A stretch of 64,000 bases of DNA, taken from the NCBI RefSeq assembly GCF_965202595.1, contig NZ_OZ241836.1, positions 932,202 to 996,201 on the forward strand. Reading direction: 5' to 3'. The DNA is from Candidatus Poriferisocius sp. GTDB lineage: Bacteria > Actinomycetota > Acidimicrobiia > Acidimicrobiales > Bin134. This document shows positions 14,455 through 58,100 of this stretch, in pieces. Below the pieces are notes generated by a model, which saw only the letters and a program-made list of their open reading frames with translations, was not told where the DNA came from and did no database searches. The translations under genes were made by a program, and so were the position numbers. Position 1 is the first letter of the stretch; the number at the start of each line of letters is the position of its first letter.

Positions 14455-16980
14455 CTATGTCTCTATCACCAAGGGCACATCGGCTTGGTTTGCTATCGGG
14501 GTCCAAAGGTCTACCTCAATCTCAGGTGATTCGACAGACACGATGAGTGCGTAGCGAACACCATCCTTGCTCCGGTCGCGTGACTTGCGCTCTTTCCACC
14601 AACCTGTCACGGGATAGACAGCGATTGCTCCGCGTGCGGCAAGCTCAACTGCGGGCCCCTTCCAGTGATCAACATGCAATGACCCGCGCACCCGTTCTTG
14701 GGGACCAAGCAACCATTGACCGCTGTCCCTCTCCGAAGTTGGGCGTTCTTCGCCCTCGGCAAGAGCGAGCTTGTTGATTCGCTTGCGAAAGTCATCGGTG
14801 GTTTCGGTAGGCTTCCGCACGTCGAATCGGAGACCGTGGGAGGCGTACCGGAACCGTCGTGTCCAGCCACGCCGAGCTGGATTAGGCTCAATGAAGTAAG
14901 ATAAAACGACTCGCATCTCCACTATTTCTTCACCGAGACCACTTAATACATCAGTGGGCCATGGGAGACTGTGCAAGTGCATCTCGCGCATCCTGCCGTC
15001 GCGATAGGGGTGAATTAGGTTCTGGCTAATTAGCGTGACCGAATCGTTGGCAGACCGTAGCGCTCGGCTTATGTCGGGCACGCCCCATCCGTAGCGACGT
15101 AGCTTCGCTACGGTACTTTGTCGATTGGCTCCGTTGAAGTGGCCTTTCATGGTCTCGGTCCAGCGGGCGGAATGAACAATCAGACCCCGAATAGTCTCTG
15201 GCCACAGGTGCGGGTACTTGGTCGACAGTTGTTGTGCGAGATGAGCTGCCTGAGCGGTGGCTGGGCTCGTACCAGCAGCCGTGGTGAGGAGCCTACCCCC
15301 AAGCACTGGCGAGCGTGTAGTGAGGAGTTGGAGGCCGGGAGGGGTATCTATCGACTGGTTCGACGGAGAGATCGCTGCGTTTCCACCCTCGAGAACTATT
15401 TCGGGTTTGTGAGGCCACTGTGTGCGAAAGCTGACTGAGGTCCGGCTGAAGGGAGACAGCTCACCTATTTGCGCAAGTGGTTTCCAACCCTTGAAGTCCT
15501 CGTGGTGAATGTGAGATAGATTGGTGTAAGCACCGACAGTCAAGGCATTCCATGCCTGGCCGGGATCTTCGACCGGTTCAATATCGCTTCGCTCAAGGTG
15601 GTTCCTGTCGTAGGGGCCGCGTACATTACCGGACGCAACGATGAACAAGCGTTGCGCATTACTAGCGGGTTTGTCGATATAGATCAGGTTGCCTTCAGAA
15701 GCAAAGACTGCGCGGCCAGCTGCAAGAGCGTCGATGGTGGATGACCACGCCGACGGCTCTCCAAGATGTGAAGGGTACATAGCTGTGTTGGTGGCTGTGA
15801 CTGCGAGAACAAATGTCCGATGCCGCTGAGGTTGGTTGATCTCAACAATCGATATTGCCTGCGCAGTTATGGCACCGTAAAACTGGGGGTCATTCTGTCC
15901 TGTGTTGGGCAGGATTTTTACCGACTCAATCCAGCCCTGAACATTGACCGGACCACCAACCATAAGGCACTTGGCTAGATCCCCATAAACCACCAGTCCG
16001 GCCATCTCGGTGCCATGTCCTCGACGATCATCGCTGCCCCAATGAGGCTGGACGCTATGAGCATCATTTTTCGAAATCGCAACACGGAGCAATGGATGGC
16101 CTATCGCAATTCCCGTGTCCAAAAGACATGTCACAGCCGCGTTATCAGGTGGCACAACAAGCCTCCCTGCCAACTCATCAACGAACTCACTCTGCTCAGA
16201 AGCGGGCAGTTCAGCCAGAAACTGGGTAGCTTCAACCGGATGGCGAAGCTCAGCAAGGTCATCAAGAAGGTCGAGTGCTGTTCCGAGCTGAGCTGGAGTG
16301 GCTCGCACGAGCATGACTATGCGATCCTCAAACGCAAGTTGTTGATGTTTTATCTCCATACCAGTGATCTCAGCGAAACTCAAAAGTCGTTGATCAGCTC
16401 TCTCACGGTGACGCAGCCACAACTCCCACCAAACTGCCACATCGCTATCAGGGAACTCGTCTGGGTTTTCGGTCCACAAAGCACGAAGCGTTGCCAGTCG
16501 CACCCCTGCGATCCTCTCGACCAGATTTTTGTTCTTTGGGTTACCGCCCGTGGTATCTTCAGAAATGTATTCCTCAAAGCGCTTTATGAATTTACCTACC
16601 CAGTCATCAGGAATAAAAACAGTAGCAAGCTGAGTGGGTTTGCCGTCAATATCTCTTGTCGTTACAGCGCACAGTTCAGGGTGAACGCTCCCCTGTTGCG
16701 GTTCGAGCGAGGTCAGTGCTAACTCGAAACCAGGTTGTGACTCGAACTCCATGTAGATGCCATCGAGAGCACCTTCAACCCGAACTGCTCCATGGTCATC
16801 CTTGCGCTTTTGAGATTCTCCGACGGCAATGCCAAACTGTTTGAGGAGTTTGTCACCGTGCTGCACCCGGTCGGACGGTGATGGCGGTGCCGTTAGCCAA
16901 GGAGCGGCTGCAAACGGTTTGTACTCATCGATATGGGGATCCCGCGTCATTATCACATGGGATCTGTTCCGTTCTGCCAC
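14455..16980 (-). CDS. S8 (subtilisin-like) serine peptidase, IetS-like
   Basis: Catalytic triad contexts LLDTGIAIGHP (Asp), GHGTEMAG (His) and AAGTSPATA (Ser). It starts 9 nt downstream of the AAA+ gene. Confidence 0.85.
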   Translation of the reverse strand: MAERNRSHVIMTRDPHIDEYKPFAAAPWLTAPPSPSDRVQHGDKLLKQFGIAVGESQKRKDDHGAVRVEGALDGIYMEFESQPGFELALTSLEPQQGSVHPELCAVTTRDIDGKPTQLATVFIPDDWVGKFIKRFEEYISEDTTGGNPKNKNLVERIAGVRLATLRALWTENPDEFPDSDVAVWWELWLRHRERADQRLLSFAEITGMEIKHQQLAFEDRIVMLVRATPAQLGTALDLLDDLAELRHPVEATQFLAELPASEQSEFVDELAGRLVVPPDNAAVTCLLDTGIAIGHPLLRVAISKNDAHSVQPHWGSDDRRGHGTEMAGLVVYGDLAKCLMVGGPVNVQGWIESVKILPNTGQNDPQFYGAITAQAISIVEINQPQRHRTFVLAVTATNTAMYPSHLGEPSAWSSTIDALAAGRAVFASEGNLIYIDKPASNAQRLFIVASGNVRGPYDRNHLERSDIEPVEDPGQAWNALTVGAYTNLSHIHHEDFKGWKPLAQIGELSPFSRTSVSFRTQWPHKPEIVLEGGNAAISPSNQSIDTPPGLQLLTTRSPVLGGRLLTTAAGTSPATAQAAHLAQQLSTKYPHLWPETIRGLIVHSARWTETMKGHFNGANRQSTVAKLRRYGWGVPDISRALRSANDSVTLISQNLIHPYRDGRMREMHLHSLPWPTDVLSGLGEEIVEMRVVLSYFIEPNPARRGWTRRFRYASHGLRFDVRKPTETTDDFRKRINKLALAEGEERPTSERDSGQWLLGPQERVRGSLHVDHWKGPAVELAARGAIAVYPVTGWWKERKSRDRSKDGVRYALIVSVESPEIEVDLWTPIANQADVPLVIET

Positions 16981-16989
16981 CTTCCGGCC

Positions 16990-17970
16990 TTACTCAGATG
17001 GTGAGATGACCGATACCTGTCGCGCCTGGAGCGCTTCCACCAGGAGCTTTGTACCTACTTTCTCCTGGTCAATTAGGATCGCTTCTTTGGCTGCCTGTTC
17101 AGCAGCAGCCGTGATCTCCGAGTGGCTCAAACCCTTTGCTATCGAGGACACCTGCTGCCAACACACCGTTCCGAGATCAAACATGGCGAGGCGATTGCGG
17201 ATCACCTGCTTGGCGATCTCCCCCGACGGCATCGGGTAGTTCAACATTACGTCGAATCGGCGGTAAAGAGCTCGGTCAAGATGCTCAGGCAGATTTGACG
17301 TGGCAATAATAACGCTGTTGGACGCGTCTTGCTCCAAAAACTGGAGGAACGAGTTGAGCACCCTGCGAATCTCGCCGACATCGTTGCTGTTGGTGCGTGC
17401 TCCGGCGAGCGCATCAACCTCGTCGAACAGGTATGCTCCTGCGGTCTCGGCTAGTTGATCGAAAATGAGTCGCAGCTTCGCCGCTGTCTCACCCATGAAC
17501 TTCGTAATTAACCCCTCTAGCCGAACGGTGAACAACGGAAGGCGCAACTCCCCTGCCAGCACCCGCGCCGTCAGTGTCTTCCCCGTCCCTGGCGGGCCAA
17601 CCAGCAACAGGCGGCGCAGAGGCGCGAAGCCTGCTGCTCTGAGCCGGTCCCGTTGCCTCTGTTCATGTAACACTCTACGCAGCGCCGACAGTACATCCTT
17701 GTCCAGCGACAAGTCCGATAGTCGCTGTTCGGGATACTCCACTGAGAGCAGCGAAGCCAGATCGCCGCGCGGCGCAACCATCGGGGTAGGTACTGCCTTC
17801 GCAGAGCGCCCTTTCGCGGCGTCAATCAACTCCCGCAAGTCCTGCGCGTACCCTGCATGACCGTTACGAGCTTCCCGAGCCGCCATCTGAAGGGCGACCG
17901 CGTAGAACTGGTAGTCGTCGCCCGCGGCGTGACTCCTGATCAAAGCCTTCACTTGATCCGCTGTAGCCAA
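16990..17970 (-). CDS. AAA+ ATPase, IetA-like
   Basis: Walker A GPPGTGKT and Walker B YLFDEVDAL. It is the first gene of a two-gene operon with the S8 peptidase. Confidence 0.85.
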   Translation of the reverse strand: MATADQVKALIRSHAAGDDYQFYAVALQMAAREARNGHAGYAQDLRELIDAAKGRSAKAVPTPMVAPRGDLASLLSVEYPEQRLSDLSLDKDVLSALRRVLHEQRQRDRLRAAGFAPLRRLLLVGPPGTGKTLTARVLAGELRLPLFTVRLEGLITKFMGETAAKLRLIFDQLAETAGAYLFDEVDALAGARTNSNDVGEIRRVLNSFLQFLEQDASNSVIIATSNLPEHLDRALYRRFDVMLNYPMPSGEIAKQVIRNRLAMFDLGTVCWQQVSSIAKGLSHSEITAAAEQAAKEAILIDQEKVGTKLLVEALQARQVSVISPSE

Positions 17971-18249: not shown

Positions 18250-19521
18250 GTGGGGTATCAGCGCCGGATTGTTGACGAGGAACTTGATGAGCTTCTCACG
18301 GGCTTGCCGGCAGTATCACTGGAGGGCCCCAAGGCTGTGGGTAAGACCGAGACGGCGCTGCAACGTGCAGGCACTGTTCATCGGCTGGACGACCCGGGGC
18401 AACTGGAGATTTTCCGTGCCGCTCCGGAGCGTCTGATCAGCGGTGATCCACCGGTACTCGTGGATGAGTGGCAACGGCTACCAGCTTCGTGGGACCTGGT
18501 CCGCCGGGCGGTTGATAGTGACCCGGCACCGTCAAGGTTCTTGCTCACCGGCTCGGCAGCACCTGCCGAAACTCCCATCCACTCGGGTGCCGAACGAATC
18601 CTCACGGTGCGTATGCGACCGATGTCTCTGGCGGAGCGAGGCCTTGAGGTTCCTTCGGTACGACTCGCCGAGATGCTCTCCGGCTCACTTCCAGCACTCG
18701 GGGGAGCCAGTCGGATCGGGCTGGCCGACTATGCCGAGGAGATCACAAGGTCCGGGTTTCCCGCCATACGCCAGCTCAGCGGCCGGCTGCTTCGGTCGCA
18801 GCTCGATGGCTACATCGACCGCATTGTCGAGCGGGATTTCGTTGAAGCCGGTCACCGAGTGCGGAACCGAGGCGCACTTCGCCGGTGGCTCAGCGCTTAT
18901 GCTGCCGCATTATCCACGACCGCGTCCTACGAGGTGATTCGGGATGCGGCGACCCCGGGCGAGGACGACAAACCGGCCAAAACCACCACGGGCCCGTACC
19001 GTTCCACCCTTGAAGGGCTTTGGATAATCGAAGATGTTCCGGCCTGGGCACCGTCCCGCAATCGATTGCGTCGCCTCGGCGCCTCTCCTGTCCACCAACT
19101 TGTTGACCCCGCACTTGCAGCTCGGCTACTGGGTACCGATACCGACGCACTCCTGGGCAACAAACCGGCAGGACCTCCCGTGCCCCGTGATGGCACACTG
19201 CTGGGCGCGTTGTTCCAGTCGCTGGTGACCCTGTCTGTGCGCACCTACGCACAGGCCAACGAGGCTCGAGTCAGCCACCTGCGCACCCACGGGGGCGAAC
19301 ACGAGATCGACCTAATCGTGGAACGCAGGGATGGCCGGGTTGTCGCCCTTGAGGTGAAGCTCGCCGCAACAATCCATGACAACGACACCCGACATCTTCA
19401 TTGGCTTGCCAACACGATCGGCGAGGATCTCCTTGACGCAGCCATCATCACCACGGGCACCGAGGCCTACCGCCGCCCCGACAAAATCGGCATCATCCCC
19501 GCTGCCCTCCTTACTGCGTAG
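18250..19521 (+). CDS. AAA_14/DUF4143-type ATP-binding protein
   Basis: P-loop EGPKAVGKTE, followed by ...VLVDEWQRLP... and a C-terminal ...EIDLIVE...VALEVK... (restriction-endonuclease-like fold of DUF4143 proteins). Confidence 0.7.
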   Translation: MGYQRRIVDEELDELLTGLPAVSLEGPKAVGKTETALQRAGTVHRLDDPGQLEIFRAAPERLISGDPPVLVDEWQRLPASWDLVRRAVDSDPAPSRFLLTGSAAPAETPIHSGAERILTVRMRPMSLAERGLEVPSVRLAEMLSGSLPALGGASRIGLADYAEEITRSGFPAIRQLSGRLLRSQLDGYIDRIVERDFVEAGHRVRNRGALRRWLSAYAAALSTTASYEVIRDAATPGEDDKPAKTTTGPYRSTLEGLWIIEDVPAWAPSRNRLRRLGASPVHQLVDPALAARLLGTDTDALLGNKPAGPPVPRDGTLLGALFQSLVTLSVRTYAQANEARVSHLRTHGGEHEIDLIVERRDGRVVALEVKLAATIHDNDTRHLHWLANTIGEDLLDAAIITTGTEAYRRPDKIGIIPAALLTA

Positions 19522-22853: not shown

Positions 22854-25800
22854 CTACCTGATCGGTTCACCGATGATTGGGGCATCTGCATACAACGCGT
22901 CAATCGCAGAGCCGATCCTCTCGGAAGCGTTTGTCATTGAATCGATCTCAACGTAACCCCATTTCCCCCACTCTCCGTGGTTGTTAACCGCCGTACACCA
23001 GTGATCCCGAGCCGTCTTGGCTTTGGCTGCGGTGGCTCCTGGGCTCTTCCGACCTCCTGATACCTCAATGATGAGCGTGCGGGTGAATGGGTCATCCTCG
23101 GGTTGAACGAGACGCACAAGGAAGTCGGGCAAGTAGCGGTGGCTGCGTCCCTCATGGACGTAGGGGATATCGAAGTCGAGGTGATCGTTCTTGACATACG
23201 ACGAGACTCGCTCCGTGTCACCTTCCAGGATGTCGGTGACGGTTTCCTCCCAGGTGTTACCCCTGAGTCCGTCGAGCACCACATAGTTGACCGGGGATCG
23301 CTCGGTCCCCACAACAACCTTGCGGGTGAGGAAGGAGACGTTGTCGGTTGATCCTCGGTTGTCGAATCGGCGAAACATTGGAAGAATTATCTCCTGTCGA
23401 GCATCCGGATATCGCACTATCGCGTTGTATACGGCTTCGGCAGCGGTAGCTTTGTATTGGGCCAGCAGAAGTACACCTGGGGGCGTGTCCGCCGCGAACG
23501 TTACTTTGTGCTCGAACCATCGTCGTGTTACATCGACAATAGCGGGGAAGAGCCACGGCTTGAGTGCTCCGTCATGGCCCGAGAAGAACCGTTGGAGCAC
23601 TTCGGCTGCCACCGCGTAGACAATGTGCTGTGAGCGGGTATTCCGCACTTGGGACAGGTCAACTTCCTCGGTTGCGCCGATCATGCCAGCCGATTCAACC
23701 CAAAGGGCGAGCGAGTCACGGTCGATATGAAGTGGCCTGGTGTGCTCGTGGTCAAACTCAATTGGCTCCTCCGGGACTTCTACCCGGTAGCCGTCGAGCT
23801 TTGGGAATACGATGCGGAGGTTTTGTCGTTCCGGCAGAGCCCTCACCTCGATTGCCGGCGGTGCGGGTTTCGATCCCGAAACAGTTCGATCCGTTGGTAT
23901 AAATACGAACGGCACCCCGTAGACATCGGCGTATTCGGGTTCGAACTTCCCCTCGGCATTTGCCTCGTAGCTACGCCGGCGCAAACCCCTACCAACGACC
24001 TGCTCACACAGAAGTTGGCTGCCGAACCGCCGGATGCCGAGGATGTGGGTGACGGTGTTAGCGTCCCATCCCTCGGTGAGCATCGAAACGCTCACCACAC
24101 ATCGGACGGTCTCCCCCAGCTTGCCCTTCTTCCCAACGGTGTTCATGACCTCACGGAGGAGATCCTCGTCGGTGAGTTTCTCAAGATCTGCCCCGGGATT
24201 CCTGCGGCTGTACTCGCGTTTGAACGTCTCGATTTCCTGGGAGACTGCTTGTTTGAAGTTGCTCTTGAGCGATTCGCCCGATTCTAGCTGAGCGGAGTCA
24301 ACGATGATCGTGGGAGGTCGATCCAGCCATGTGCCGTTCGCTACGTTGGTCAGCAAGTCCAGGTTTCCCTTGCGGATTCCTTTGCTGCCGTCCGGCAGCT
24401 CCACCTCCTGGCCGGCAATCCAGTCGAACACGAGCTTCGAGACCACCGTGTTGGGGCAGATCACAATCATCACCGGGGGTGGCTCGCCGTGCGGCTCGAG
24501 ATCCCGCTTCCAAACTTGGAACCGCTTCTCATAGCTCCGGTGCAAGGACTCCAGGGCTCCCTGTAACTCTACGGGCGGTATCCAACTCGAGTCCGATTCG
24601 GCATTCCTGCTCACACGCTTGGGTAACTTGTCACCGATGTGGTCCCACAGCCAGAGGTAGGTGGGTTGCTCGGTACTGACAACATCATCATCAACAGGCA
24701 CCCTTGGCACCTTCACAATGCCCGACTCGATGGCATCCATGAGCGAGAAGTCGCTGACCACCCATGGGAATATGTACCCCTCCTGGTACCCGGAGCCACC
24801 CAGGTAGTAGGGAGTGGCCGAAAGGTCGTAGATGATCTTTACACCTACGCGCCTGGATACTGCTTCGAGGCCCCGGAACCAGACGCGAGCACTTTCATTG
24901 CGCTCCTTGGCCTCCTTCCCAGGTTCGTCGGAACCAAGGGGGTTTGTCCTGATAGCAGTGGTGGGCCTCATCGTTGAGAACGAGAACCTCGCCCTTGCCG
25001 CGGCTCGAGAGATCGCGCATAACACGGTCTGCAACATCCTCATCGGTTTCGAGAAATGGGTTGGTTTCCTTGCCGGATGTCAGCAAGAGCCGTGTGTTTT
25101 TGGCAATACCTTGCATCTCCTTAGCGGTTTTTGGCAGGAACGTATGGTAGTTCGTGATGATGATTGCAGCATCGTCCAGCACCGTTCGAAGATCATGGGG
25201 AACGAGTCCACGCAGGTCGTAGTAGTTGGTTTCATCATGAGGTAGAAGCACCCTAAGCCGATCCCGAATGGTGATCCCTGGAGTCAGAACGAGAAATCTA
25301 TTGGTAAACCGTCGATCTCGTGGGCTGAAGGCTTTATTGGTGGTCTGCCACACAATTATCATACACATGACAACGGTTTTACCTGTTCCGGTGGCCATCT
25401 TCAGTGCGACCCGCGGCAGACCATTGTTGTGTTCATCGTTCTCCGGCCCGATCAGTGCCCGAAAGTCGGGTTCACCATGACGTCCTGCTACCTCTGCCAA
25501 GTAGATCGCGGTCTCAACCGCTTCTCTCTGACAGAAGAGAATCCGATCTTCACGTGTTTCGTCAGCCCAATGATTCAACAACTTCCGGCTGATCGGAGTA
25601 ACCCAGGTGTAGCCACGCACTCGCCATAATTCCACCCGATACCTGATGTCGTTGATAAGTTGATTACGTTCCCTACGTTCTCCAGTGGTGTCGAAGAGGT
25701 CTAGCATCTCCTGCTGTTGAGCCAACTCGGCAGGATCAATCCTGCGCCGACCCCGCTTCTTTCGCGACATCGGTACAGGGATGAAAGACTCACTTGGCCG

Positions 25801-25947
25801 CCTTCCTGTTTTTACTTCGCCAGTCGGGCCATTCGGGCCCAGCACAAAGTGAGCCTTCGGAGGTTCATACGGCGAGTTCAGAATAGGATTGCTGAGAGCG
25901 TCGGCAGGCTCCACCGATGGTAGCGACGGGTTCGATGCCTGGCTCAT
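22854..25947 (-). pseudogene. res: Type III restriction enzyme Res subunit (SF2 helicase + PD-ExK nuclease), frameshifted
   Basis: ATGTGKT and DEAH (LNDEAHHCY) lie in ORF 24895-25986. The helicase C-terminal part and the PDFLV...IIEVSGGRK nuclease lie in ORF 22854-25043. The two frames join if the G5 run at 24938-24942 were G4. Confidence 0.8.
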
Positions 25948-26045
25948 CAGGTTCCTCCGAGCAAACCTGTGTGATTCGACATTCAACCCATATTAGACGA
26001 AGGGTGTGACATCAGGGAGGAACTCGACGGGGTTGCCGCCTTCAA

Positions 26046-27779
26046 TCACCTGGTCAAGGGGATGTATGTGTGCGCTGGGGCATCCACGGCTGCGTGAGGC
26101 ATGGCCACAAGGTGGAGTCCTGAGCCGTGTTCATCAATGTGTCCAGCTATGAGATTCACCATCGTGCCCGCCAGCCCAACGGCATCTGCTGCCGACCCAT
26201 GGAAGGTTGGGGTGGAGCATCCACGCATGGCGATGAGTTCTTCGCCCTGCTCCGGCTTGTTCCAGAAAGTTTGGAAAGCTTCAAGCCTACCGGTGTTGAG
26301 GACCTCATGGTGGAGTTCCTCGTCGACCGCAGCGGGGCCGAGCCCGCTAGATTGACCTGATACGGCAATGAGTCCGAGCGAGGCAGTGGAGATGTCGGTT
26401 GAGACCGCGGCCAGAAGGGGGTGCTGGAGGTCCTTTGACGCTGCCCTGCTGAGGACGGCACCGAACGCCTCATTAACCGTTGCATCTATGATGAGATCGT
26501 GGTTGGCAACGTCCTCGGCTACCCGGCCTTGGCTGGGTTCGTACCTAGGGTTGACCTCAACATCGTCTGAGAGGGCTCGGAGCCGGGCGGCGAGTTGGCT
26601 TACTTTGGGAAAGCCAACATCGTCCTCGGTGTAGTTCTGCCGTACAAGCAGATCAGGTCCGACAGTGGCGAGATCCGTGACAGTCAGGTGCGAAACACCA
26701 GCGCGAACGAGCAATTCAGCAATCCAGGAACCTAGAGCACCACAGCCGCAGAGGAGTACTCGCTTGCCATGCAATCGTCGTACCGGACGCCTTATATCCC
26801 GCCGAAGAGCGGTTTCGGTGCGAAGGTCGGCGGTTCTGTACCAACTCAGTGGGACTGGGTTTTGGAGCGCGTTGTGGGGATCGTCTTGTGATGCTGCGAC
26901 TGCCGAGGAATATCGAGGGTCGATTTGAGCGGCAGCTAGATGATGCCCGGAGCCGGCATCTGCTGCCTCCCGTGAGACAGCTAGGAGCACAATGAGTGGT
27001 TTGCCTGGGCCATTCTTTGAGGCAGTACGGCGAAGCGCTCCCATAACGGCTTCGGGCTTGCTGCCTCCAGCATCGGCAACGCTTTGGAGTAGCTCCTGAA
27101 GGGTTGCTCCTGGGCCGCGTATCAGCCGTTTAGGTGAAGTCAAGGTGAGGATCCTGAGTTCGGTGTCATCGCGTGTGAAGAGATCGATTCGTTTCTCGCT
27201 TCGCATACGTGCAGAGGCGATATTGATGTTCTTGTTGAGATCTCCGAGGTGGGAGCGAACGACTGCGGTTGAGGCTTTGTGATCGTGGGGTTGGATGCCA
27301 CCAATCGGATGAAACAGGGCAGTAGTAGGATCAAAGTTGCCGTTGGCAAGTTTCTCAATGAAGTCCCAGATTCGTTCGATTGAACCCTTGATCCCTAAGT
27401 CAGGATGCCACTCCCTATGCGGATCTAGGTAGGTGCAGAGGCGGACACCATTGCGATTCCATAAGCCTCCTGCAAGAGTATGGGCACAACCGAGCCAGCG
27501 TTCATGATTGACTTCTATGAGCGGGGGGCAGTCGGGGAACATCTCTGGAAATCCGACGAAGAACTTTTCAGTGTCATGAAGTTCAATGTGCTCACTGTCA
27601 TTTCTGAAGTGAGACATCGATAATGTGATAGCTATGACTAGGCTCTTGTCTTGGAATAGGCAGGGAGCACCAAGTGATAATATGAAACCAGGATATTCAT
27701 GCGCAAGCTTATGCAAATCATAGATCGCGTCATATTGTTGTTTATTGCCGCGTTGTTGGCTAACAGAACGCCGACTCAT
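26046..27779 (-). CDS. cap2: CBASS Cap2-like E2/E1 fusion protein
   Basis: N-terminal E2-like FPEMFPDCPPLIEVNH...RLCTYLDPHREWHP. C-terminal ThiF/E1 Rossmann motif VLLCGCGALGSWIAELLVRAG, with a Cys in MRGCSTPTFHG. Its start overlaps the CD-NTase stop (ATGA). Confidence 0.75.
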   Translation of the reverse strand: MSRRSVSQQRGNKQQYDAIYDLHKLAHEYPGFILSLGAPCLFQDKSLVIAITLSMSHFRNDSEHIELHDTEKFFVGFPEMFPDCPPLIEVNHERWLGCAHTLAGGLWNRNGVRLCTYLDPHREWHPDLGIKGSIERIWDFIEKLANGNFDPTTALFHPIGGIQPHDHKASTAVVRSHLGDLNKNINIASARMRSEKRIDLFTRDDTELRILTLTSPKRLIRGPGATLQELLQSVADAGGSKPEAVMGALRRTASKNGPGKPLIVLLAVSREAADAGSGHHLAAAQIDPRYSSAVAASQDDPHNALQNPVPLSWYRTADLRTETALRRDIRRPVRRLHGKRVLLCGCGALGSWIAELLVRAGVSHLTVTDLATVGPDLLVRQNYTEDDVGFPKVSQLAARLRALSDDVEVNPRYEPSQGRVAEDVANHDLIIDATVNEAFGAVLSRAASKDLQHPLLAAVSTDISTASLGLIAVSGQSSGLGPAAVDEELHHEVLNTGRLEAFQTFWNKPEQGEELIAMRGCSTPTFHGSAADAVGLAGTMVNLIAGHIDEHGSGLHLVAMPHAAVDAPAHTYIPLTR

Positions 27780-28783
27780 CCGGCACGGCTTGCTGAGGTT
27801 GAAGCTGGTACGACTACTGGGGGTCCGAGTGGGGACGAAGCAGTCTCCACAGATTCTGTGGGTTCAAAGTCTTCACCGAAGATCTCCTGCCAGCGGCGCA
27901 TGGAAGATTTATAGTCAGAGTCGCGATAGGCGACTTTGATGAGAGTTGTGTAGTGATGCATCTTACTCCGGAATGAGTGGTAAATTGTGTCGTTCCATCG
28001 ATGATCAAAGGTGACGGGATTGCCTTGTGGGTCGCACGCGCCGGAAGGATCCTCAATAGTGGGTTTGTAGGGATTGGCTTGCAAGTAGTAATTGAGGTCA
28101 ATCATTACTTGGTAAAGAGTAGAGGGAACATCTCCATATCGTCCATTGTACTTGTTCTCAGTGGTGATGGTATCTCCGATTAGCTTGGTGATGATGATCG
28201 AAGGTACGTCAGGAAAAGCGTCGTGGTAGTCACGTAGGTACTTCACAAGCCGAATGACCTTACGCAGGTTGTTGTTGGCGGTTTCGTCACGGGACTGCAT
28301 CCATGAGATGAATCTCTCTGGGTTAGTGTCCTCCCAGTCGTTATCATCGCGGCAAACAATCACCTTCCGTCCGTCAGCAAGAGTAAGGTAAGGAACGATG
28401 TCCACATGGTGATTATTGGCGTAGATGACACGAACACACCTGGACTTAGTTTCATCGTCAATCATATCTCCATAAACTCCGTGGGTTCGTAGTGCCTGCT
28501 CGAGCCTTATGAGGTAGCTCCTCGGGTTAGCCGACCAGTTGACATCCTCTTCAAGGTGCAACAGGAAGTCAGCATCGAACTCAAGGTCATCGACCGGACG
28601 GATTATGGTGCGGTGGCTCCATGATCCTTGAGGGATCTTTGCAATAACTAGATGACCGATTATGTCAGAGTTAACCAGGGCCGCAAAGATGGCATCAACA
28701 TTGGTCTCCAATTGGTCGAGTCGGTGCTGGGGTAGGTTGACGACGTTGGTGAGGAACTTGTTGAAAGTGGGTGTGTGTCTCAT
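27776..28783 (-). CDS. cdnA: CD-NTase / SMODS nucleotidyltransferase
   Basis: Pol-beta NTase signature QGSWSHRTIIRP...DLEFDADFLL, with a third acidic residue in HHVDIVP. It also has LRKVIRLVKYLRD and a disordered tail ending ...SASRAG. Confidence 0.75.
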   Translation of the reverse strand: MRHTPTFNKFLTNVVNLPQHRLDQLETNVDAIFAALVNSDIIGHLVIAKIPQGSWSHRTIIRPVDDLEFDADFLLHLEEDVNWSANPRSYLIRLEQALRTHGVYGDMIDDETKSRCVRVIYANNHHVDIVPYLTLADGRKVIVCRDDNDWEDTNPERFISWMQSRDETANNNLRKVIRLVKYLRDYHDAFPDVPSIIITKLIGDTITTENKYNGRYGDVPSTLYQVMIDLNYYLQANPYKPTIEDPSGACDPQGNPVTFDHRWNDTIYHSFRSKMHHYTTLIKVAYRDSDYKSSMRRWQEIFGEDFEPTESVETASSPLGPPVVVPASTSASRAG

Positions 28784-29943
28784 GGCGGTGTGATCTCCAT
28801 AGCAAATCGATAGGTTTTGTTGATGAGGTCGTAAGTGACAAGGTTAGGGTGTATCCCCCATCCGATGCTGCGTCCTATGGTTATGGCGACGGAAACGGGA
28901 GCAGCGGCCAGAACGTGTAACCGTTCGAGGTTCTTGACACTGCTTTCGAGTTCTCCAAGAAGATCGCGAAGTATCCGCTCGAAAGACATCAATGTTGCTC
29001 TCGATGATACTGTTCCAACCTTAGGTGTTTCGCCTACTGGTTCGATTGTATATGTGGGTAGGGGAGCAAGCTGAGTGGGTGGAGTGTGGGTTGTTCCAGA
29101 GGCATTAACAACCAAAACAGCCTCGGTTGAAGTGTCTGAAGGTTCACTGTTACACCGCCATATGAATTCGACTGGCTTGGTTTTCTCGCCCCATATCCAA
29201 GGTGCGATTTCGCTACGAGGCTCGTAGATATCGCAATCAATTGTGTCGTCAAGGCGCGAGCCAAAGTAAACCAGCAAGGGCAGTCGAGCCATCGCGAAAA
29301 CGCTTATATGCTGAATCTCACCTTTTCTAATAGCTGGTCGAATGATACGATCAAGCTGTTCATCAATACGCCGCGCACAGTTTTGGTAATACAAATCAGT
29401 TGGAATTGACTCATCTGGGAAGTCCCGTAAGTCTATCTCAACACCTTGCCGGTCATAAGTAAATCGTAGACTGGGAAAGCGGTCCGAGGTTTTTAGTATG
29501 GCGTTTGCAGCGATCTTGGCAGATATTTCAACAGGGGCATCGCGGATGAGTGCGCTTAGGCGTACGATAGCGGTGCTTTCTGAACCCACCTGCTTGGTTG
29601 CAGCCCGAATACGAGCCTCGTGTTGATACTTGATCTTCTTCATCTTGCAAATCGGGAAAAGGTCTGCATGGGCTAGCTTGTCGACCTCATTGTGGCAATT
29701 TTCACACAAAAGAATGAGGTTGTCCGCACAGTCTCGTTCTTTAGGGGTCAGATTGCTGATACCTCGTGGGGAGTTGGCGGAGTTGGTCTGCCCCACAATG
29801 TGGGCCAATTCCCCCAATGTAAACTCCCGGTAGGATAAGCCCGACTCCAGTAGATAGCGATTGCAGAGCGCACAACGGCCCCCGGACCGTACCCACACAG
29901 CAAGCCGGACCTTCTCATCAATCTTGCGGCGGTTGCTCGTCAC
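28780..29943 (-). CDS. cap5: HNH endonuclease-SAVED effector (Cap5-like)
   Basis: HNH motif CALCNRYL...ELAHIVG...NLILLCENCHNEVDK, followed by a ~250-aa C-terminal sensor-like domain. Its stop overlaps the CD-NTase start (ATGA). Confidence 0.8.
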   Translation of the reverse strand: MTSNRRKIDEKVRLAVWVRSGGRCALCNRYLLESGLSYREFTLGELAHIVGQTNSANSPRGISNLTPKERDCADNLILLCENCHNEVDKLAHADLFPICKMKKIKYQHEARIRAATKQVGSESTAIVRLSALIRDAPVEISAKIAANAILKTSDRFPSLRFTYDRQGVEIDLRDFPDESIPTDLYYQNCARRIDEQLDRIIRPAIRKGEIQHISVFAMARLPLLVYFGSRLDDTIDCDIYEPRSEIAPWIWGEKTKPVEFIWRCNSEPSDTSTEAVLVVNASGTTHTPPTQLAPLPTYTIEPVGETPKVGTVSSRATLMSFERILRDLLGELESSVKNLERLHVLAAAPVSVAITIGRSIGWGIHPNLVTYDLINKTYRFAMEITPP

Positions 29944-30136
29944 GATGCTCTCCGGCTGCTCGATCTTCCTGAGGCCGAGAATGCCCCAATGCCTTTAGCT
30001 GCTAGCCTCGGCATGAGATGAAGTGCCATAAATGCTGACTTGGGTGGATTGACCCAGCCCCATTATAACCGGTCAGGTGACCCCATGGCGGTGGCAACGT
30101 TTTGAGTGCTCATCATGTCCTCTGGTTTTCCCTCTG

Positions 30137-30160
30137 TTGAATTACACGGTTGGAATTCAA
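30137..30160. promoter_or_regulatory. Palindrome TTGAATT-N10-AATTCAA upstream of the CBASS operon
   Basis: Perfect 7-bp arms at 30137-30143 and 30154-30160, about 200 bp upstream of the cap5-like start, in an AT-rich leader. Confidence 0.25.
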
Positions 30161-30285
30161 GCATATCGGCCCTCTCAAACAATCACACCTGATTTTTAGA
30201 AAATTTGTGAGGAGGGAGTAGATGAGGTTCAGTGTGCGTGAAGTGGGTTGATGGGAATCACCACCATCAGGCTCGACTACGAGGA

Positions 30286-30328
30286 CTAGGTGTAACCCTT
30301 ATGGAGGTTGTTGACAGTTCGGTTGGGG
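30286..30328 (+). repeat. Dispersed repeat E copy (forward) at the right island boundary
   Basis: ctaggtgtaacccttatggaggttgttgacagttcggttgggg is near-identical to 54690-54733. Confidence 0.85.
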
Positions 30329-30340
30329 GTCGCTCTGCTG

Positions 30341-31701: not shown

Positions 31702-32454
31702 TTAGCGGCAGATCATTCCGCCGTCCACCACCATTGTGTTGCCCGACACCCATCGGGCCTCGTCGCTGCATAGCCAGACTGCGGCCTCGGCCACCTCCTC
31801 GGGTTGACCCAGGCGACGGCCCGGCATGTGCTGGATCACCGCCTCGGCCATTTCCGGGCTGGATTCCCGCCAGGATGCCACCATGGGGGTGTCGATCATG
31901 CCCGGGCACACCGAGTTGACCCGGATCCCCTGGTTGTTCAGCTCGTCGGCCGCGTGGGTGGTCAGCCCCAGCACGCCCCGCTTGGCCGCGGTGTAGTGAG
32001 GTTGGCCGGGTGCGGGCACGATGGCCGCCCCCGAAGCGGTGTTGACGATGGCCCCACCGTCACCTTGGGCCAGCATCTGGATTATCTCGTGCTTCATGCA
32101 CAGGAACACCGAGGTCAGGTTCACCACGATCATCTCGTTCCACTGGTCCAGGGTGAGTTCGTGGAACGGCCGGGATGGGTGGGTGATGCCCGCGTTGTTG
32201 AAGGCGCAATCCAGCTTCCCGAACTCGCCCACCGTGGCCGCCACCAGCTCCTCCACCCCGGCCTCGTCGGTCACGTCGGTGGCGAAGAACCGGCCCCGGC
32301 CACCCCCGGCCTCGATCATGGCTACGGTCTCCGCCCCGCCGCCGAGGTCAAGGTCGGCCACCGCCACCCCGGCCCCCCGGTGGGCGAACAGCACCGCCGC
32401 CGCCCGGCCGATCCCGCTGCCACCCCCGGTCACCAGGGCCACCTTGCCCCTCAT
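31702..32454 (-). CDS. SDR family oxidoreductase
   Basis: MRGKVALVTGGGSGIGRA and YTAAKRGV (YxxxK). The track ORF extends to 32649 through an in-frame 33-bp repeat array. Whether that extension is translated is unresolved. Confidence 0.8.
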   Translation of the reverse strand: MRGKVALVTGGGSGIGRAAAVLFAHRGAGVAVADLDLGGGAETVAMIEAGGGRGRFFATDVTDEAGVEELVAATVGEFGKLDCAFNNAGITHPSRPFHELTLDQWNEMIVVNLTSVFLCMKHEIIQMLAQGDGGAIVNTASGAAIVPAPGQPHYTAAKRGVLGLTTHAADELNNQGIRVNSVCPGMIDTPMVASWRESSPEMAEAVIQHMPGRRLGQPEEVAEAAVWLCSDEARWVSGNTMVVDGGMICR

Positions 32455-32463
32455 GGGGTCGTC

Positions 32464-32595
32464 CTTCTGGGGGTTTGCGTCCCTGGTGGGGTTGTTCTTC
32501 TGGGGGTTTGCGTCCCTGGTGGGGTTGTTCTTCTGGGGGTTTGCGTCCCTGGTGGGGTTGTTCTTCTTGGGATTTGCGTCCCTGGTGGGAGCTCG
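32464..32595. repeat. 33-bp tandem repeat x4 directly upstream of the SDR core
   Basis: The unit cttctgggggtttgcgtccctggtggggttgtt is found at 32464, 32497 and 32530, with a variant at 32563. If translated it encodes (PTRDANPQKNN)x4. Confidence 0.9.
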
Positions 32596-32688
32596 CTTGC
32601 TGATGATGTCACCATGACGGCATAAGGTAGGCCGAGATGGCATCGGCACACTAGATGTCGCCCGGTGCCGGTAAGCGAAAGGACATTT

Positions 32689-55100: not shown

Positions 55101-58100
55101 TTAGTTGTTGCAGATGTCGTTGTTCAGATCGGCAACGCGGTCGCCGTAGTTGCCACGGCCCAGGCGGCGGCACTCCTCAGCGAGGGCGGCTCTGTACTCG
55201 TCGCGGTAGGTGGCGGCCAGGGTGTCGCCGGCTTTTTGGCGGGCTATGGCCTCACGCCGGGTGTAGGGCAGCGAGCACACATCGGCCACGCCGTCACCGT
55301 CGCTGTCGAGGGGGTAGGTGGTGGGCCCACCCAGGGAGCGGTTGGCGCACCAGGAAGGCCCGGTGATGGTGCCCGAGTAGTAGGGGCCCCCGTCGTTGGG
55401 AGGCGGGAACCCCGGTGCGGCCAACTCATCACCCCCGCAAGCCTCGTTGCCGGGCTGGTTGGCGCACTCGGCGTTGACGAGATCCCGGTACAGGTCTGGG
55501 TACCGGTTGGCCAGGGTGATCACCGCGTTTTGTCGGGCTATGGCCTCACGGCGGGTGTAGGGCAGCGAGCAAATATCGGCCACCCCATCCCCATCGCTGT
55601 CGAGGGCGAACAAGCGGACCCCACCCAAAGAGAACTCCGCACAAAAACTCGGACCGGTGACCGGACCGGAGTAATAAACCTGATCACTGGGGGTGTCACC
55701 ACCAGGAGCATCGTCGCCGGAGGTGATGGTGGACGATGTGCCTGCGGAGCCGGCACCCACTGCGTTGATGGCTCGCACCTCGAACACATAGGCCACCGGA
55801 CCGGTACCAGTATTAGTACCGGTTATGACCGTGCTCATCGTGGCCGCCCCAACATCGGCCCACTCACCAAAACCAGCGCTCTCGATGCGGGTACGCCACT
55901 GCCAACCCGTCACCGCAGAACCCCCATCGGCACCCGCCATCCAAGTAACGGTGATGGTCCCATCGGTAGCCGTCGCTGTGACGCTGGGAGCAGCAGGTAC
56001 CGCAGCAGGTGTCGCCGACACCGAAGCCACAGCACCAGCACCCATAGCGTTCCGGGCCCTTAGGTGGAACGCGTAGCTAGTGCCATTGACCAGATCCGAC
56101 ACCGGCACCGAGGTGGCATCATCCATCCCGGCCAAATCCACCCACTGGCCTTCATCGACCCGCAAATGCCAACCCGTCACCACAGACCCACCATCGGTGC
56201 CCGGTGTCCACGACAAAGTCACCGTTTCGTCACCGGGCGTGGCGGTAACCATGGGAGCATCAGGCACCGTGGCCGGCATCGCAGTGTCAACCCCAACGGC
56301 ACCGGCACCCATCACGTTTCGGGCTCGAACCTGGAAGGTGTAGGTGGTGCCGTTGGCGAGATTCTGAACCGGCACCGAGGTGGTACCCGCAGGATAACTA
56401 GCCCACTGGTCGGTACCGGTGCGCAACTGCCAACCCGTCACCGCAGAACCACCATCACCACCCGGGGTCCAGCTCACCGTCACCGCCTTGTCACCAGCCA
56501 TGGTGGTCACCGCCGGCGCATCAGGCACCGTCGCCGGCATCACCGTCGCAGTACCAGCGGGGCCGGCACCAATCCTGTTCAGCGCTCTGACCTCAAAGGT
56601 GTAGGCAACACCATTGGTGAGACCATCGATGTCGCGGGTGGTGGTAGCGGCAGGCACATCAACCCAAGCCCCGTAACCAGCGGTGCCGGTTTTCATCCGG
56701 TACTGCCACCCGGTAACCGCAGCAGCCCAGTTGGACTCCCCCGCCACCCCGCCAGCACCAGCGGCCCAGTTCAAAGTGACCTTCATATCCGCAGCGGTGG
56801 CGGTCACCGACGGGGCGGGGGGCACCGCCGATGGGGTGACAGGATCGGACTCGAACGCCGCCCCAATCACCTGAACATTGGTGGTCACCGCCCGCACCTG
56901 GAACGTGTAAGCCCGCCCGTTAGCGAGATCATCCACCACCAGGCTACGCGCCGCCGCCCCACCGGTTACCGCGGTCCACGAACCGTAACCCCCACCATCG
57001 GTTTTCATACGATACTGCCAACCCGTAACCGTGCTACCCCCCGTGTTCGGTGCATCCCACGACAACGTGACCCGACCATCACCAGCAGTCGCAGTTAATG
57101 AACCGCCAGCGGGTGCGCCGATCGGTGTTATCGGACCAACCACCCCCGCGGCGGGGCCGGCACCGAACTGGTTCACCGCTCGCACCTCGAACTCATAGGC
57201 CACCCCGTTGGTCAGGCCCCGCACCGGCACCCCTGCTGATTCGGCCAAATGGCGGGCCGGTGGGGTGATACGAGCTCCCAACGATTGCCACGCATCAAAA
57301 CTGCTGCTACCGCTGCGACGCACCCGAACCTCATAACCCAAAACCGCAGAACCACCCTGAGGGGCCAACAAAGTGACCCTCACCCCACCATCGGCCGGTG
57401 TCACTGCCACCTGGCGAGGCGCAGTGGGCGTATTGCCAGGGGTAACCGGCAACGACTGCGCCGGCGCGCCCTTGTTGACAGTGGTAGTCACAGTATCCAA
57501 AACACCCTCGCTGTCGAGGGCCATCAAAGCGTTCACCGCCCGCAGGCGGAACCGGTACGTCGAGCCGTTGGTCAAACCTTTTATCACCGCTTGAGTCGTC
57601 GACGGCCCACTACCCGGAACCGGAGTCCACTCATCGTCCCAACCACTCCATGAGGTATTCGCGCCCGCAGCTTTTGAATCCTTGATGTATTCCCAGCGGA
57701 TGATCGGCGGACCCCCCGAACCCACCGACATCCACGACAGGGTTACCTGACCATCACCACCGGCAGCAGCCAACCCTGCCGGGGCGGGGGGTGCCACACC
57801 CGGTATCACCACCTTGTCGGGGTAAACATCGGCAGCTTTGTTGTGCAAACCGGCACCGTTGGAATACAACGCAGGACCCGCCAACCAACCGGTGCCGTGC
57901 CGGTTCCGCGCCCTGACCCGGAACTCGTAGGCCACCCCATTGCGCAAACCCGACACCACGATCCCGTCGCCAGCCACATCGGCGCTGTTCGCAGCCCGCC
58001 CCGCGAACCTTTGACCAACGTTGGACACCGCCCACGGCGACCACTCACCACCGGCGGGACGATACGAATACTCCCAAACCGTCTCACCAGAATAAGTGCC

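Follow-up and report, generated by a model that had tools for sequence, protein, structure and literature searches.

A three-gene type II CBASS operon without Cap3 in a defence island of 'Candidatus Poriferisocius'

The window, by which we mean the whole 64-kb stretch of 'Candidatus Poriferisocius' DNA that was analysed, carries an intact CBASS operon consisting of a Cap5-like nuclease, a cGAS-like cyclase (CD-NTase), and a Cap2 E2/E1 enzyme, without Cap3. The operon most probably encodes a working type II system of three genes and belongs to a Cap3-less clade found widely in Actinomycetota; here it lies in a low-GC defence island. Within that large actinobacterial clade the Cap3-less three-gene layout is the rule, and the window operon is another member. 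An earlier note on this DNA had proposed an HNH-SAVED effector, a CD-NTase, and a Cap2-like E2/E1 protein with no Cap3 in the operon or nearby, and Pfam, PADLOC, Foldseek, and JAB searches bear out each part of that description.

Operon components and genomic setting

The ORF listing places the three genes on the minus strand (Table 1). They are translationally coupled, as the earlier note had claimed, via 4-nt ATGA overlaps that can be read directly in the sequence at positions 28783-28780 and 27779-27776.

Table 1. Features of the CBASS operon and its flanks (window coordinates).
Feature	Position	Strand	Basis or remark
Cap5-like effector, 387 aa: N-terminal HNH endonuclease and C-terminal SAVED sensor domain	28780..29943	-	Pfam, PADLOC, PDB
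CD-NTase (cGAS/DncV-like cyclase), 335 aa	27776..28783	-	Pfam, PADLOC, PDB, residues
Pro/Ser/Ala-rich CD-NTase C-terminal tail, ending SASRAG; presumed Cap2 substrate end	27779..27868	-	Sequence and homologue tails
Cap2, 577 aa: E2 domain, linker, E1/ThiF adenylation domain	26046..27779	-	Pfam, PADLOC, invariant columns, AF2/Foldseek
59-bp spacer, Cap2 stop to first type III res ORF	25987..26045	-	No gene room, no terminator-like site
397-bp non-coding stretch 5' of the effector gene; putative promoter region and edge of the island	29944..30340	-	Sequence, GC

The effector has the domain arrangement of Cap5, with an HNH nuclease motif at its N terminus and SAVED at its C terminus. Its Pfam matches are SAVED (E = 2.4e-25) and, weakly, HNH_2 (E = 9e-4), while PADLOC returned an endonuclease effector (E = 1e-122) and SAVED_HNH (E = 2e-88). 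The HNH residues read from the sequence are a Cys24/Cys27/Cys80/Cys83 zinc knuckle, His48, Asn75, and His84. Near full-length alignment to PDB entries supports the SAVED assignment further: 7rwk matches over residues 5 to 359 (E = 1.3e-32) and 8ysq at E = 6e-32. We take 7rwk, labelled in the PDB only as "SAVED domain-containing protein", to be a Cap5 structure. Likewise, the solved HNH-SAVED effectors of CdnG-Cap5 CBASS (7RWK, 7RWM, and 8FM1), which the window effector matches along almost all of its length, are presumably Cap5. By analogy, the nuclease would be switched on by a cyclic nucleotide.

The second protein is indeed a CD-NTase. Pfam matched SMODS (E = 4.6e-28) and DncV-like_NTFase (E = 2.3e-10), PADLOC matched a cyclase (E = 1e-114), and the PDB matches are CD-NTase/CdnG entries, with CdnG 8hsb at only E = 3e-7. 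The GS...DxD...D nucleotidyltransferase core is present in the sequence as Gly53-Ser54, Asp70, Asp72, and Asp128, and Asp70 is the counterpart of the residue changed in M. abscessus CmaB D70A, a loss-of-function mutant. The protein ends in ...PASTSASRAG, exactly at the SASRAG terminus that the earlier note had pointed out.

Profile searches and structure prediction agree on the E2/E1 nature of Cap2. The protein matches ThiF (E = 4.8e-21) and, along its full length, the PADLOC E1-E2 family PDLC00857 (E = 6e-143; profile positions 7 to 583 of 589). Prok-E2_A fell slightly short, at 22.7 bits against a cutoff of 25, a threshold that homologues of the window Cap2 exceed. The E2 domain (residues ~30 to 160) contains His100 and Cys115, and the E1/ThiF domain (residues ~330 to 577) contains GCGALGS, Arg380-Gln381-Asn382, Asp432, and Cys521. 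Across 44 Cap2 homologues with 31 to 55% identity, H100, C115, C346, R380, Q381, D432, and C521 never vary. An AF2 model (pLDDT 88) had as its best Foldseek match E. cloacae Cap2 (7TO3_A; E = 2.2e-24, TM 0.66), a match of the full-length fold; phmmer and hmmsearch against the PDB aligned only the linker and the Rossmann part of 7TO3 by sequence. The likely role of C115 and C521 as the catalytic cysteines is drawn from their invariance and this fold match rather than from residue-by-residue mapping onto 7TO3.

The operon lies in a low-GC mosaic defence island that also holds IetAS, PDC-S01, and type III R-M genes (GC 0.50 to 0.59 versus ~0.66). Upstream, the 397-bp region adjoins a GC-rich host amidohydrolase gene, and GC drops there from ~0.67 to ~0.50. 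No sigma-70-like site was found in this region, and a scan for promoters and terminators returned sites no commoner than expected by chance. Neither the 59-bp nor the 397-bp spacer contains an ORF of meaningful size that could be a hidden small gene. The res gene next to Cap2 is split by an apparent frameshift at a C5 run around position 24,945, which may be genuine or a sequencing error.

Absence of Cap3 and relationship to other systems

No Cap3/JAB ORF was detected in any unannotated frame near the operon. Pfam found no JAB in any of the 95 six-frame stop-to-stop segments of at least 60 aa between 18.2 and 32.1 kb, and a JAMM-motif regex run on all six translated frames of the entire window found none either. 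A local JAB HMM, built from fused JAB domains only and run with no free-standing Cap3 to serve as a positive control (partly compensated by the Pfam scans), gave no JAB near the operon or in related loci (window plus 87 loci). PADLOC run on all six-frame segments gave no JAB in the best 25 of 161 families, which excludes only a strong JAB (E below ~1e-26). The earlier note had argued that ~60 to 100 bp between Cap2 and res left no room for Cap3, and the spacer of 59 bp upholds this.

The absence extends well beyond the window. A genome scan by alignment found relatives, and a scan with Cap2 alone gave no confirmed relative. Our survey of homologous operons comprised ~85 loci across many genera of Actinomycetota, with unrelated neighbour genes, and Cap3 was absent from all of them. 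These operons, which occur in metagenomes, 80 genomes, and one Rhodococcus plasmid, combine a Cap5 or patatin effector with a CD-NTase and Cap2. Regex and HMM found no JAB in 84 related loci, and no recurrent JAB appeared among 113 flanking ORFs of ~40 nonredundant loci. We found no explicit mention of Cap3-less or JAB-less CBASS, or of clade-wide absence of Cap3, in the searchable literature.

A terminal Gly on the cyclase is equally general. Homologue CD-NTase tails end in Gly in 80 of 81 cases and in Ala in the other, with the consensus R-S-G-R-A-G. According to the literature, type II CBASS cyclases normally carry Gly/Ala at the C terminus of a disordered tail: among 1,583 sequences, CD-NTases from type II systems that have Cap2 and Cap3 finish in Gly/Ala in nearly every case (Jenson et al., PMC10097602), the Ledvina preprint likewise reports a terminal Gly/Ala on CD-NTases, and the SASRAG end resembles that of E. 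cloacae CdnD (...KTGRFA; Ledvina preprint). Cap3, moreover, is described as a deconjugase and not a maturase (Jenson et al., PMC10097602; Ledvina preprint). The suggestion that the Gly is a special, "ready-made" substitute for trimming therefore does not stand. A conserved Gly-ended tail under selection implies active Cap2 chemistry.

The effector-first gene order, previously called atypical, is in fact the commonest in related loci and is also found in M. abscessus cmaABC. The V. cholerae order, capV-dncV-cap2-cap3, is effector-first too. cmaABC (Mab_2091-2093) encodes a patatin, a CD-NTase, and an E2/E1 protein, with no Cap3 mentioned, and it protects M. smegmatis against phage TM4, a protection that requires CmaC, including its E1 and E2 domains (PMC12359967). 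It thus shares with the window operon three genes in the same order and no Cap3, but it carries a patatin phospholipase (CapV-like) as effector in place of an HNH-SAVED nuclease, and its host is a mycobacterium rather than an acidimicrobial sponge symbiont. The cmaABC residues that were mutated (CD-NTase D70, Cap2 Q385 and L99, and G52) sit on conserved motifs of mycobacterial loci L026 and L047, and the cmaABC domain positions likewise agree with the motifs of the family. The window proteins are 35% (Cap2) and 45% (CD-NTase) identical to those of the actinobacterial loci that we took as cmaABC orthologues. Agreement in residue numbering and architecture makes cmaABC a probable member of the Cap3-less clade.

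Among described classes, the window operon accords with a cmaABC-like arrangement of effector, CD-NTase, and E2/E1 without JAB, its Cap2 belonging to the same PADLOC family noted above (PDLC00857). It also has the NTase core, fused E2 and E1 domains, and Gly-ended tail of E1E2/JAB type II systems, but not the operon-encoded Cap3. Canonical E1E2/JAB CBASS (V. cholerae, E. coli TW11681, E. cloacae, and P. aeruginosa; Ledvina 2023, Jenson 2023) has the same E2-linker-E1 fold and also a disordered, Gly/Ala-ended CD-NTase tail, whereas the window operon has no Cap3/JAB gene, and its Cap2 has only 14 to 16% identity to E. cloacae Cap2. Type II-short CBASS has a stand-alone E2 without E1 and a longer CD-NTase with a folded C-terminal motif (PMC12948482); the window operon differs in having an E1/ThiF domain and a 335-aa CD-NTase with a low-complexity tail.

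Proposed priming without an operon-encoded deconjugase

Our model for the system extrapolates from what has been characterised in E. cloacae, V. cholerae, and E. coli, and the conjugation chemistry, target, irreversibility, ligand, and nuclease outcome are all predicted by analogy with these. The Cap2 E1 domain would adenylate the terminal Gly335 of the CD-NTase tail, which would form a thioester on Cys521 and then pass to the E2 Cys115. Ligation of the cyclase to a cellular target by Cap2 would prime it, and upon infection the primed CD-NTase would produce a cyclic nucleotide that binds the SAVED domain of the effector and turns on the HNH nuclease, leading to abortive infection. Conjugation would proceed with no operon-encoded isopeptidase to reverse it, and in this clade expression level, protein turnover, or target availability presumably keeps priming in check in place of a dedicated Cap3. 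The Cap2-only, non-reversible priming proposed in the earlier note is viable, but for the whole clade rather than for one operon.

It is improbable, in our estimation, that this is a canonical reversible type II system that draws its deconjugase in trans from a host JAMM/JAB protein or another isopeptidase elsewhere in the genome. Actinobacteria do carry JAMM proteins, including Mec of the CysO pathway, and our JAB search at the home locus covered the 64-kb window of a roughly 3-Mb genome; Cap3 also modulates immunity in some systems (PMC11153139). Against this, the ~85 operons travel without a linked JAB in many genera and in unrelated contexts, including a plasmid, and cmaABC functions in a heterologous host (PMC12359967). 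Near-identical CD-NTase tails occur in different genera, which indicates that the operon moves by horizontal transfer, so reliance on a specific host partner is unlikely.

Decay of the operon into a non-functional remnant is considerably less likely still. The adjoining frameshifted res gene and the mosaic island would be in keeping with decay, yet the three ORFs are uninterrupted and match their family profiles at full length, all catalytic residues and the Gly terminus are kept, and the coupled start/stop overlaps are preserved. Recent loss of Cap3 upon insertion of the type III R-M genes beside Cap2, as the earlier note had suggested from the proximity of res (59 bp), can be set aside almost entirely, since the closest relatives (L001 and L002; 51 to 55% identity) and all others lack Cap3 despite different downstream genes, the Cap2 C terminus is full length against the PADLOC profile, and no JAB remnant occurs in any frame.

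The favoured reading, a functional member of a Cap3-less clade, bears on the role of Cap3, which is disputed between systems. Cap3 antagonises priming in V. cholerae, is required against certain phages in E. coli, and contributes in B. cereus; in V. cholerae and P. aeruginosa, immunity is reported not to depend on it (PMC11153139). Here, a large natural clade has Cap2, its predicted catalytic cysteines, and a conserved Gly-ended cyclase tail but never Cap3. Retention of Cap2 chemistry without Cap3 suggests that conjugation alone can be maintained by selection, and the clade lends itself to comparative study of how priming is held back in the absence of a deconjugase. That phage defence needs a Cap2 homologue is already known from the probable clade member cmaABC (PMC12359967). 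The value of the window itself lies mainly in annotation, as a Cap5-armed clade member in the defence island of an uncultured sponge-associated actinobacterium.

Ancestry of the Cap3-less clade

In an NJ tree, the window Cap2 nests inside the JAB-less clade. The nearest sequence outgroups, with 26 to 28% identity, are single-chain E2-E1-JAB fusions (P0115-P0117, Rhodococcus pDK1 L085, and Rhizobium pRLa11 L086), which carry the JAB part that the window Cap2 lacks. One nested lineage keeps an apparent dead JAB remnant in 718-aa proteins (P0029, P0034, and P0060). Together, the fusion outgroups and this remnant suggest that the clade may descend from a fused E2-E1-JAB ancestor. It is possible, though we put it forward only tentatively, that Cap3-less E1E2 CBASS constitutes a third, unnamed architectural class of type II systems, apparently common in Actinomycetota, in which the JAB of a single-chain ancestor was first inactivated (as in the three remnant-bearing proteins) and then deleted, and in which cyclase conjugation is truly irreversible, as in a natural "Cap3 knockout". 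If so, the class would reveal the purpose of Cap3 and how autoimmunity is avoided without it.

Two plasmid matches (H7 and H11) considered as stand-alone Cap3 controls both proved to be E2-E1-JAB fusion systems. The best NCBIfam match of the window Cap2 is 6A-MBL_cap2_3 (NF058523; E = 1e-37), a family of E2-E1-JAB fusions, covering profile positions 5 to 513 of 665. We rejected membership in that family, because the score of 130 bits is far below the cutoff of 320 and the JAB part of the profile is unmatched.

The Cap3-less CBASS operon

The three ORFs of the CBASS operon (see table) are present as the earlier note described them, and direct reading of the sequence confirmed both the ATGA start/stop overlaps (...gccATGAgac at 28783-28780 and ...ggATGAgtc at 27779-27776) and the CD-NTase C terminus, ...PASTSASRAG. 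The GC content of the operon stretch is 0.50 to 0.59, versus ~0.66 in its flanks, and 59 bp separate the Cap2 stop from the first ORF of the type III res gene. An identical Cap2 sequence is on record under a "Candidatus Poriferisocius sp." protein.

Coordinates of the features discussed
Feature	Location	Strand	Length
Effector ORF	window 28780-29943	minus	387 aa
CD-NTase ORF	window 27776-28783	minus	335 aa
Cap2 ORF	window 26046-27779	minus	577 aa
Type III res gene, two ORFs	window 22854-25986	minus	363 aa; 729 aa
S8 subtilase and AAA ATPase	window 14455-17970	minus	841 aa; 326 aa
PDC-S01	window 18250-19521		
SDR gene	window 31702-32649	minus	
Large ORF	window 55101-60431	minus	1,776 aa
Cap2 homolog P0034	L088 5001-7157		
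Divergent four-gene block	L001 1209-3530; L088 1637-3902		
Small DUF2188 and DUF1508 genes	L002 3529-3777; L003 4418-4881		82 aa; 68 aa

The effector carries a SAVED domain (Pfam E 2.4e-25) with a weak HNH_2 match, is matched over its full length by the PADLOC endonuclease-effector (E 1e-122) and SAVED_HNH (E 2e-88) models, and retains HNH residues H48, N75, and H84 along with four zinc cysteines. Nearly the entire protein aligns with solved HNH-SAVED effector structures (7rwk, E 1.3e-32), which we take to be Cap5. The cyclase is a CD-NTase, being SMODS/DncV-like (E 4.6e-28; PADLOC cyclase, E 1e-114) with motif residues G53-S54, D70, D72, and D128 in place. Cap2 combines a ThiF domain (E 4.8e-21) with a subthreshold Prok-E2_A match (22.7 versus 25 bits), and it is covered end to end by the PADLOC E1-E2 model PDLC00857 (E 6e-143). 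The best PDB match of its AlphaFold2 model (pLDDT 88) over the whole chain is Enterobacter cloacae Cap2 (7TO3_A; E 2.2e-24, TM 0.66). Both catalytic cysteines are present: in an alignment of 44 Cap2 homologs (31 to 55% identity), H100 and C115 of the E2 part, GCGALGS, R380-Q381, and C521 within the GCSxPTFHGSAAD loop of the E1 part are all invariant.

The absence of Cap3 in or near the operon, also proposed from the sequence alone, was borne out. No JAB was among the 23 Pfam families found in 95 six-frame stop-to-stop segments of at least 60 aa (18.2 to 32.1 kb), and a JAMM-motif regular expression run over six frames of the whole 64 kb gave five matches, none like the HTHP...S..D of fused JAB relatives. 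A local JAB HMM, seeded with the JAB domains of five such relatives and applied without filters to the window plus 87 loci, found only its own seeds, with everything else at E above 4; since no stand-alone Cap3 served as its positive control, the Pfam scans carry the weight. The PADLOC matches listed include no strong JAB match, which is weak evidence.

Related operons and the cyclase tail

An alignment-based genome scan recovered 80 loci, from 199 confirmed relatives in total, in hosts that include Streptomyces, Mycobacterium/Mycolicibacterium, Microbacterium, Arthrobacter, Rhodococcus, Nocardia, Solirubrobacterales, and Acidimicrobiia. In all complete loci the CD-NTase gene lies directly upstream of Cap2, mostly with a 4-nt overlap, and the gene just upstream encodes the effector, either a Cap5 homolog or a patatin phospholipase. 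The effector-first order, regarded in the earlier note as atypical, is the commonest arrangement across these loci; one relative at 41% identity places the CD-NTase first, followed by Cap2 and then the effector. No ORF of the related loci matched the JAMM motif or the JAB HMM, and when the ORFs flanking ~40 nonredundant loci (113 in all) were compared with Pfam, the families found were patatin, HTH, M78 peptidase, and an assortment of others, with no JAB recurring. A Rhodococcus fascians plasmid encodes CapV, CD-NTase, Cap2, and a SAVED protein, and JAB was not found there. The absence of Cap3 is not peculiar to the window locus. The two closest loci (L001 and L002, 51 to 55% identity) share all three genes and their order with the window operon and are followed downstream by unrelated genes; since relatives of this kind also lack JAB, the suggestion that Cap3 was lost when the restriction-modification (R-M) genes arrived is refuted.

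The CD-NTase ends in Gly in 80 of 81 related tails and in Ala in the other, within a strongly conserved consensus (...R-[SPT]-G-R-A-G) that the SASRAG of the window fits. A C-terminal Gly or Ala is the rule for type II CBASS in general: it is the final residue of 1,583 aligned cyclases from Cap2- and Cap3-containing operons, and deleting the last cyclase residue abolished conjugation and defense (Jenson et al., PMC10097602). The same extended, disordered tail was reported by Ledvina et al., with ...KTGRFA in E. cloacae. Because Cap3 in these systems acts as a deconjugase, and no maturase role in exposing Gly is ascribed to it (PMC10097602; Ledvina et al.), a "ready-made" Gly needing no trimming does not distinguish the window cyclase. 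What its conservation does show is that selection acts on the tail, and with it on the Cap2 chemistry, across the Cap3-less clade.

Identical CD-NTase tails (SAKFPAAAPAAASTVGRSGRAG) with equal BLAST scores occur at L018, L019, L021 to L023, L030, L058, L063, L073, L078, and other loci, in genera that include Microbacterium, Agromyces, Herbiconiux, Arthrobacter, Nostocoides, Actinotalea, Tersicoccus, and Gordonia. This pattern indicates that one patatin-type operon has spread horizontally among genera in recent times.

Classification, mechanism, and origin

Type II CBASS has been split into E1E2/JAB (1,583 systems) and E2-only (616 systems) classes (PMC12948482), and according to Ledvina et al., Cap2 and Cap3 are encoded by all type II systems. 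The window operon falls outside the first class, lacking Cap3, and outside the second, having an E1. An E1E2-without-JAB class is not explicitly described in the literature searched, which did not extend to the original census. The operon fits the three-gene architecture (effector, CD-NTase, E2/E1 protein) of Mycobacterium abscessus cmaABC (Mab_2091-2093), a type II CBASS whose effector is a patatin and for which Cap3 is nowhere mentioned (PMC12359967). cmaABC protects Mycobacterium smegmatis from phage TM4; CmaA and CmaB without CmaC give no protection, and mutation of the CmaC E1 (Q385A) or E2 (L99A) abolishes it (PMC12359967). In the mycobacterial loci L026 and L047, position 385 of Cap2 corresponds to the Q of the invariant VRQN and position 99 to the L of PHVLAG; position 70 of the CD-NTase is the leading Asp of DxD, and position 52 of the patatin is a Gly of the DGGG motif. 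Since the mutated positions fall on these motifs, cmaABC very probably belongs to the same clade as the window operon, so judged by residue numbers; defense and its dependence on Cap2 have been shown by others for this probable clade member. According to reviewed Cap3 deletions, Cap3 is dispensable for immunity in Vibrio cholerae and Pseudomonas aeruginosa systems and only partly needed in those of Escherichia coli and Bacillus cereus (PMC11153139).

The gene content, conserved residues, and lack of JAB were observed here directly. The window operon is an ordinary representative of a large, experimentally sampled clade, and all that is new locally is its combination with a Cap5 effector in a lineage of sponge symbionts. 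At the level of the clade, E1E2 without JAB is worth a note, though it is less of a surprise than a new system would be. In the proposed mechanism, Cap2 would activate Gly335 of the cyclase, pass the tail from C521 to C115, and ligate the cyclase to a target. The primed cyclase would then make a nucleotide, the putative ligand through which the SAVED domain would switch on the Cap5-like HNH nuclease. The operon encodes no means of reversal, and priming may be irreversible.

Outside the clade, the nearest relatives are E2-E1-JAB fusions on a single chain, with Pfam Prok-JAB matches (P0115 to P0117; Rhodococcus pDK1 and Rhizobium pRLa11). The best NCBIfam match of the window Cap2 is a Cap2-Cap3 fusion model, "6A-MBL_cap2_3," matched only over positions 5 to 513 of 665 and far below cutoff. 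In a neighbor-joining tree rooted on the fusions, all JAB-less Cap2 proteins form one large clade, within which three homologs (P0029, P0034, and P0060; 718 aa) are nested. Their C-terminal extension of ~140 aa, as a profile built from the three sequences, aligns with the N-terminal part of JAB over 80 columns (hhalign probability 84.6%, E 6.8e-6). Within this block another residue takes the place of the catalytic Glu (ETGG), and the HxH...S..D metal site, looked for by eye, is apparently missing beyond the block. The P0034 operon consists of CD-NTase, Cap2 with the apparently dead JAB, and then patatin, with no other JAB. The extension resembles a Cap3 domain left as a vestige within the Cap3-less clade, and it points to a fused E2-E1-JAB ancestor whose JAB may have been inactivated and then deleted. 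Neither a neighbor-joining topology nor a profile of three sequences is strong evidence, so we treat this descent as a lead.

Surroundings of the operons

In the window, the subtilase matches the PADLOC model for IetS (E 1e-40) and the ATPase that for IetA (E 2e-67), by which we identify the pair as an IetAS defense system. Together with PDC-S01 (E 6e-70), the type III R-M genes, and CBASS, it makes up a ~16-kb defense island. The res gene is broken into two ORFs that overlap, the shorter with a ResIII/DEAH motif, and the frame changes near 24,940 to 24,950 at a C5 run (...CAAACCCCCTTGG...) just past the DEAHH motif. It is likewise called as two genes on L090, a second contig from the same sample (99.989% identical), and the frameshift may mark a genuine pseudogene, phase variation, or a sequencing error in the homopolymer.

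Two unrelated metagenomic contigs, L001 and L088, carry a divergently transcribed block of four genes that adjoins the CBASS operon on its upstream side and is not present in the window. Its products are a small RHH-like protein, Fic and Peptidase_M78 proteins, and an unknown protein of ~310 aa; the M78 peptidase is reminiscent of CapP-type CBASS regulators. Small DUF2188 and DUF1508 genes, with no equivalent in the window, lie immediately upstream of two other related operons.

The predicted product of the SDR gene, a short-chain dehydrogenase, begins with four tandem 11-residue units (PTRDANPQKNN; window 32,450 to 32,640), which may be a miscalled upstream extension or a real repeat-bearing N terminus. 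Across the large ORF, especially at 58 to 60 kb, strand asymmetry is extreme (GC skew reaching -0.46, AT skew +0.30) and GC is lower, which suggests that the large protein is repetitive or biased in composition.
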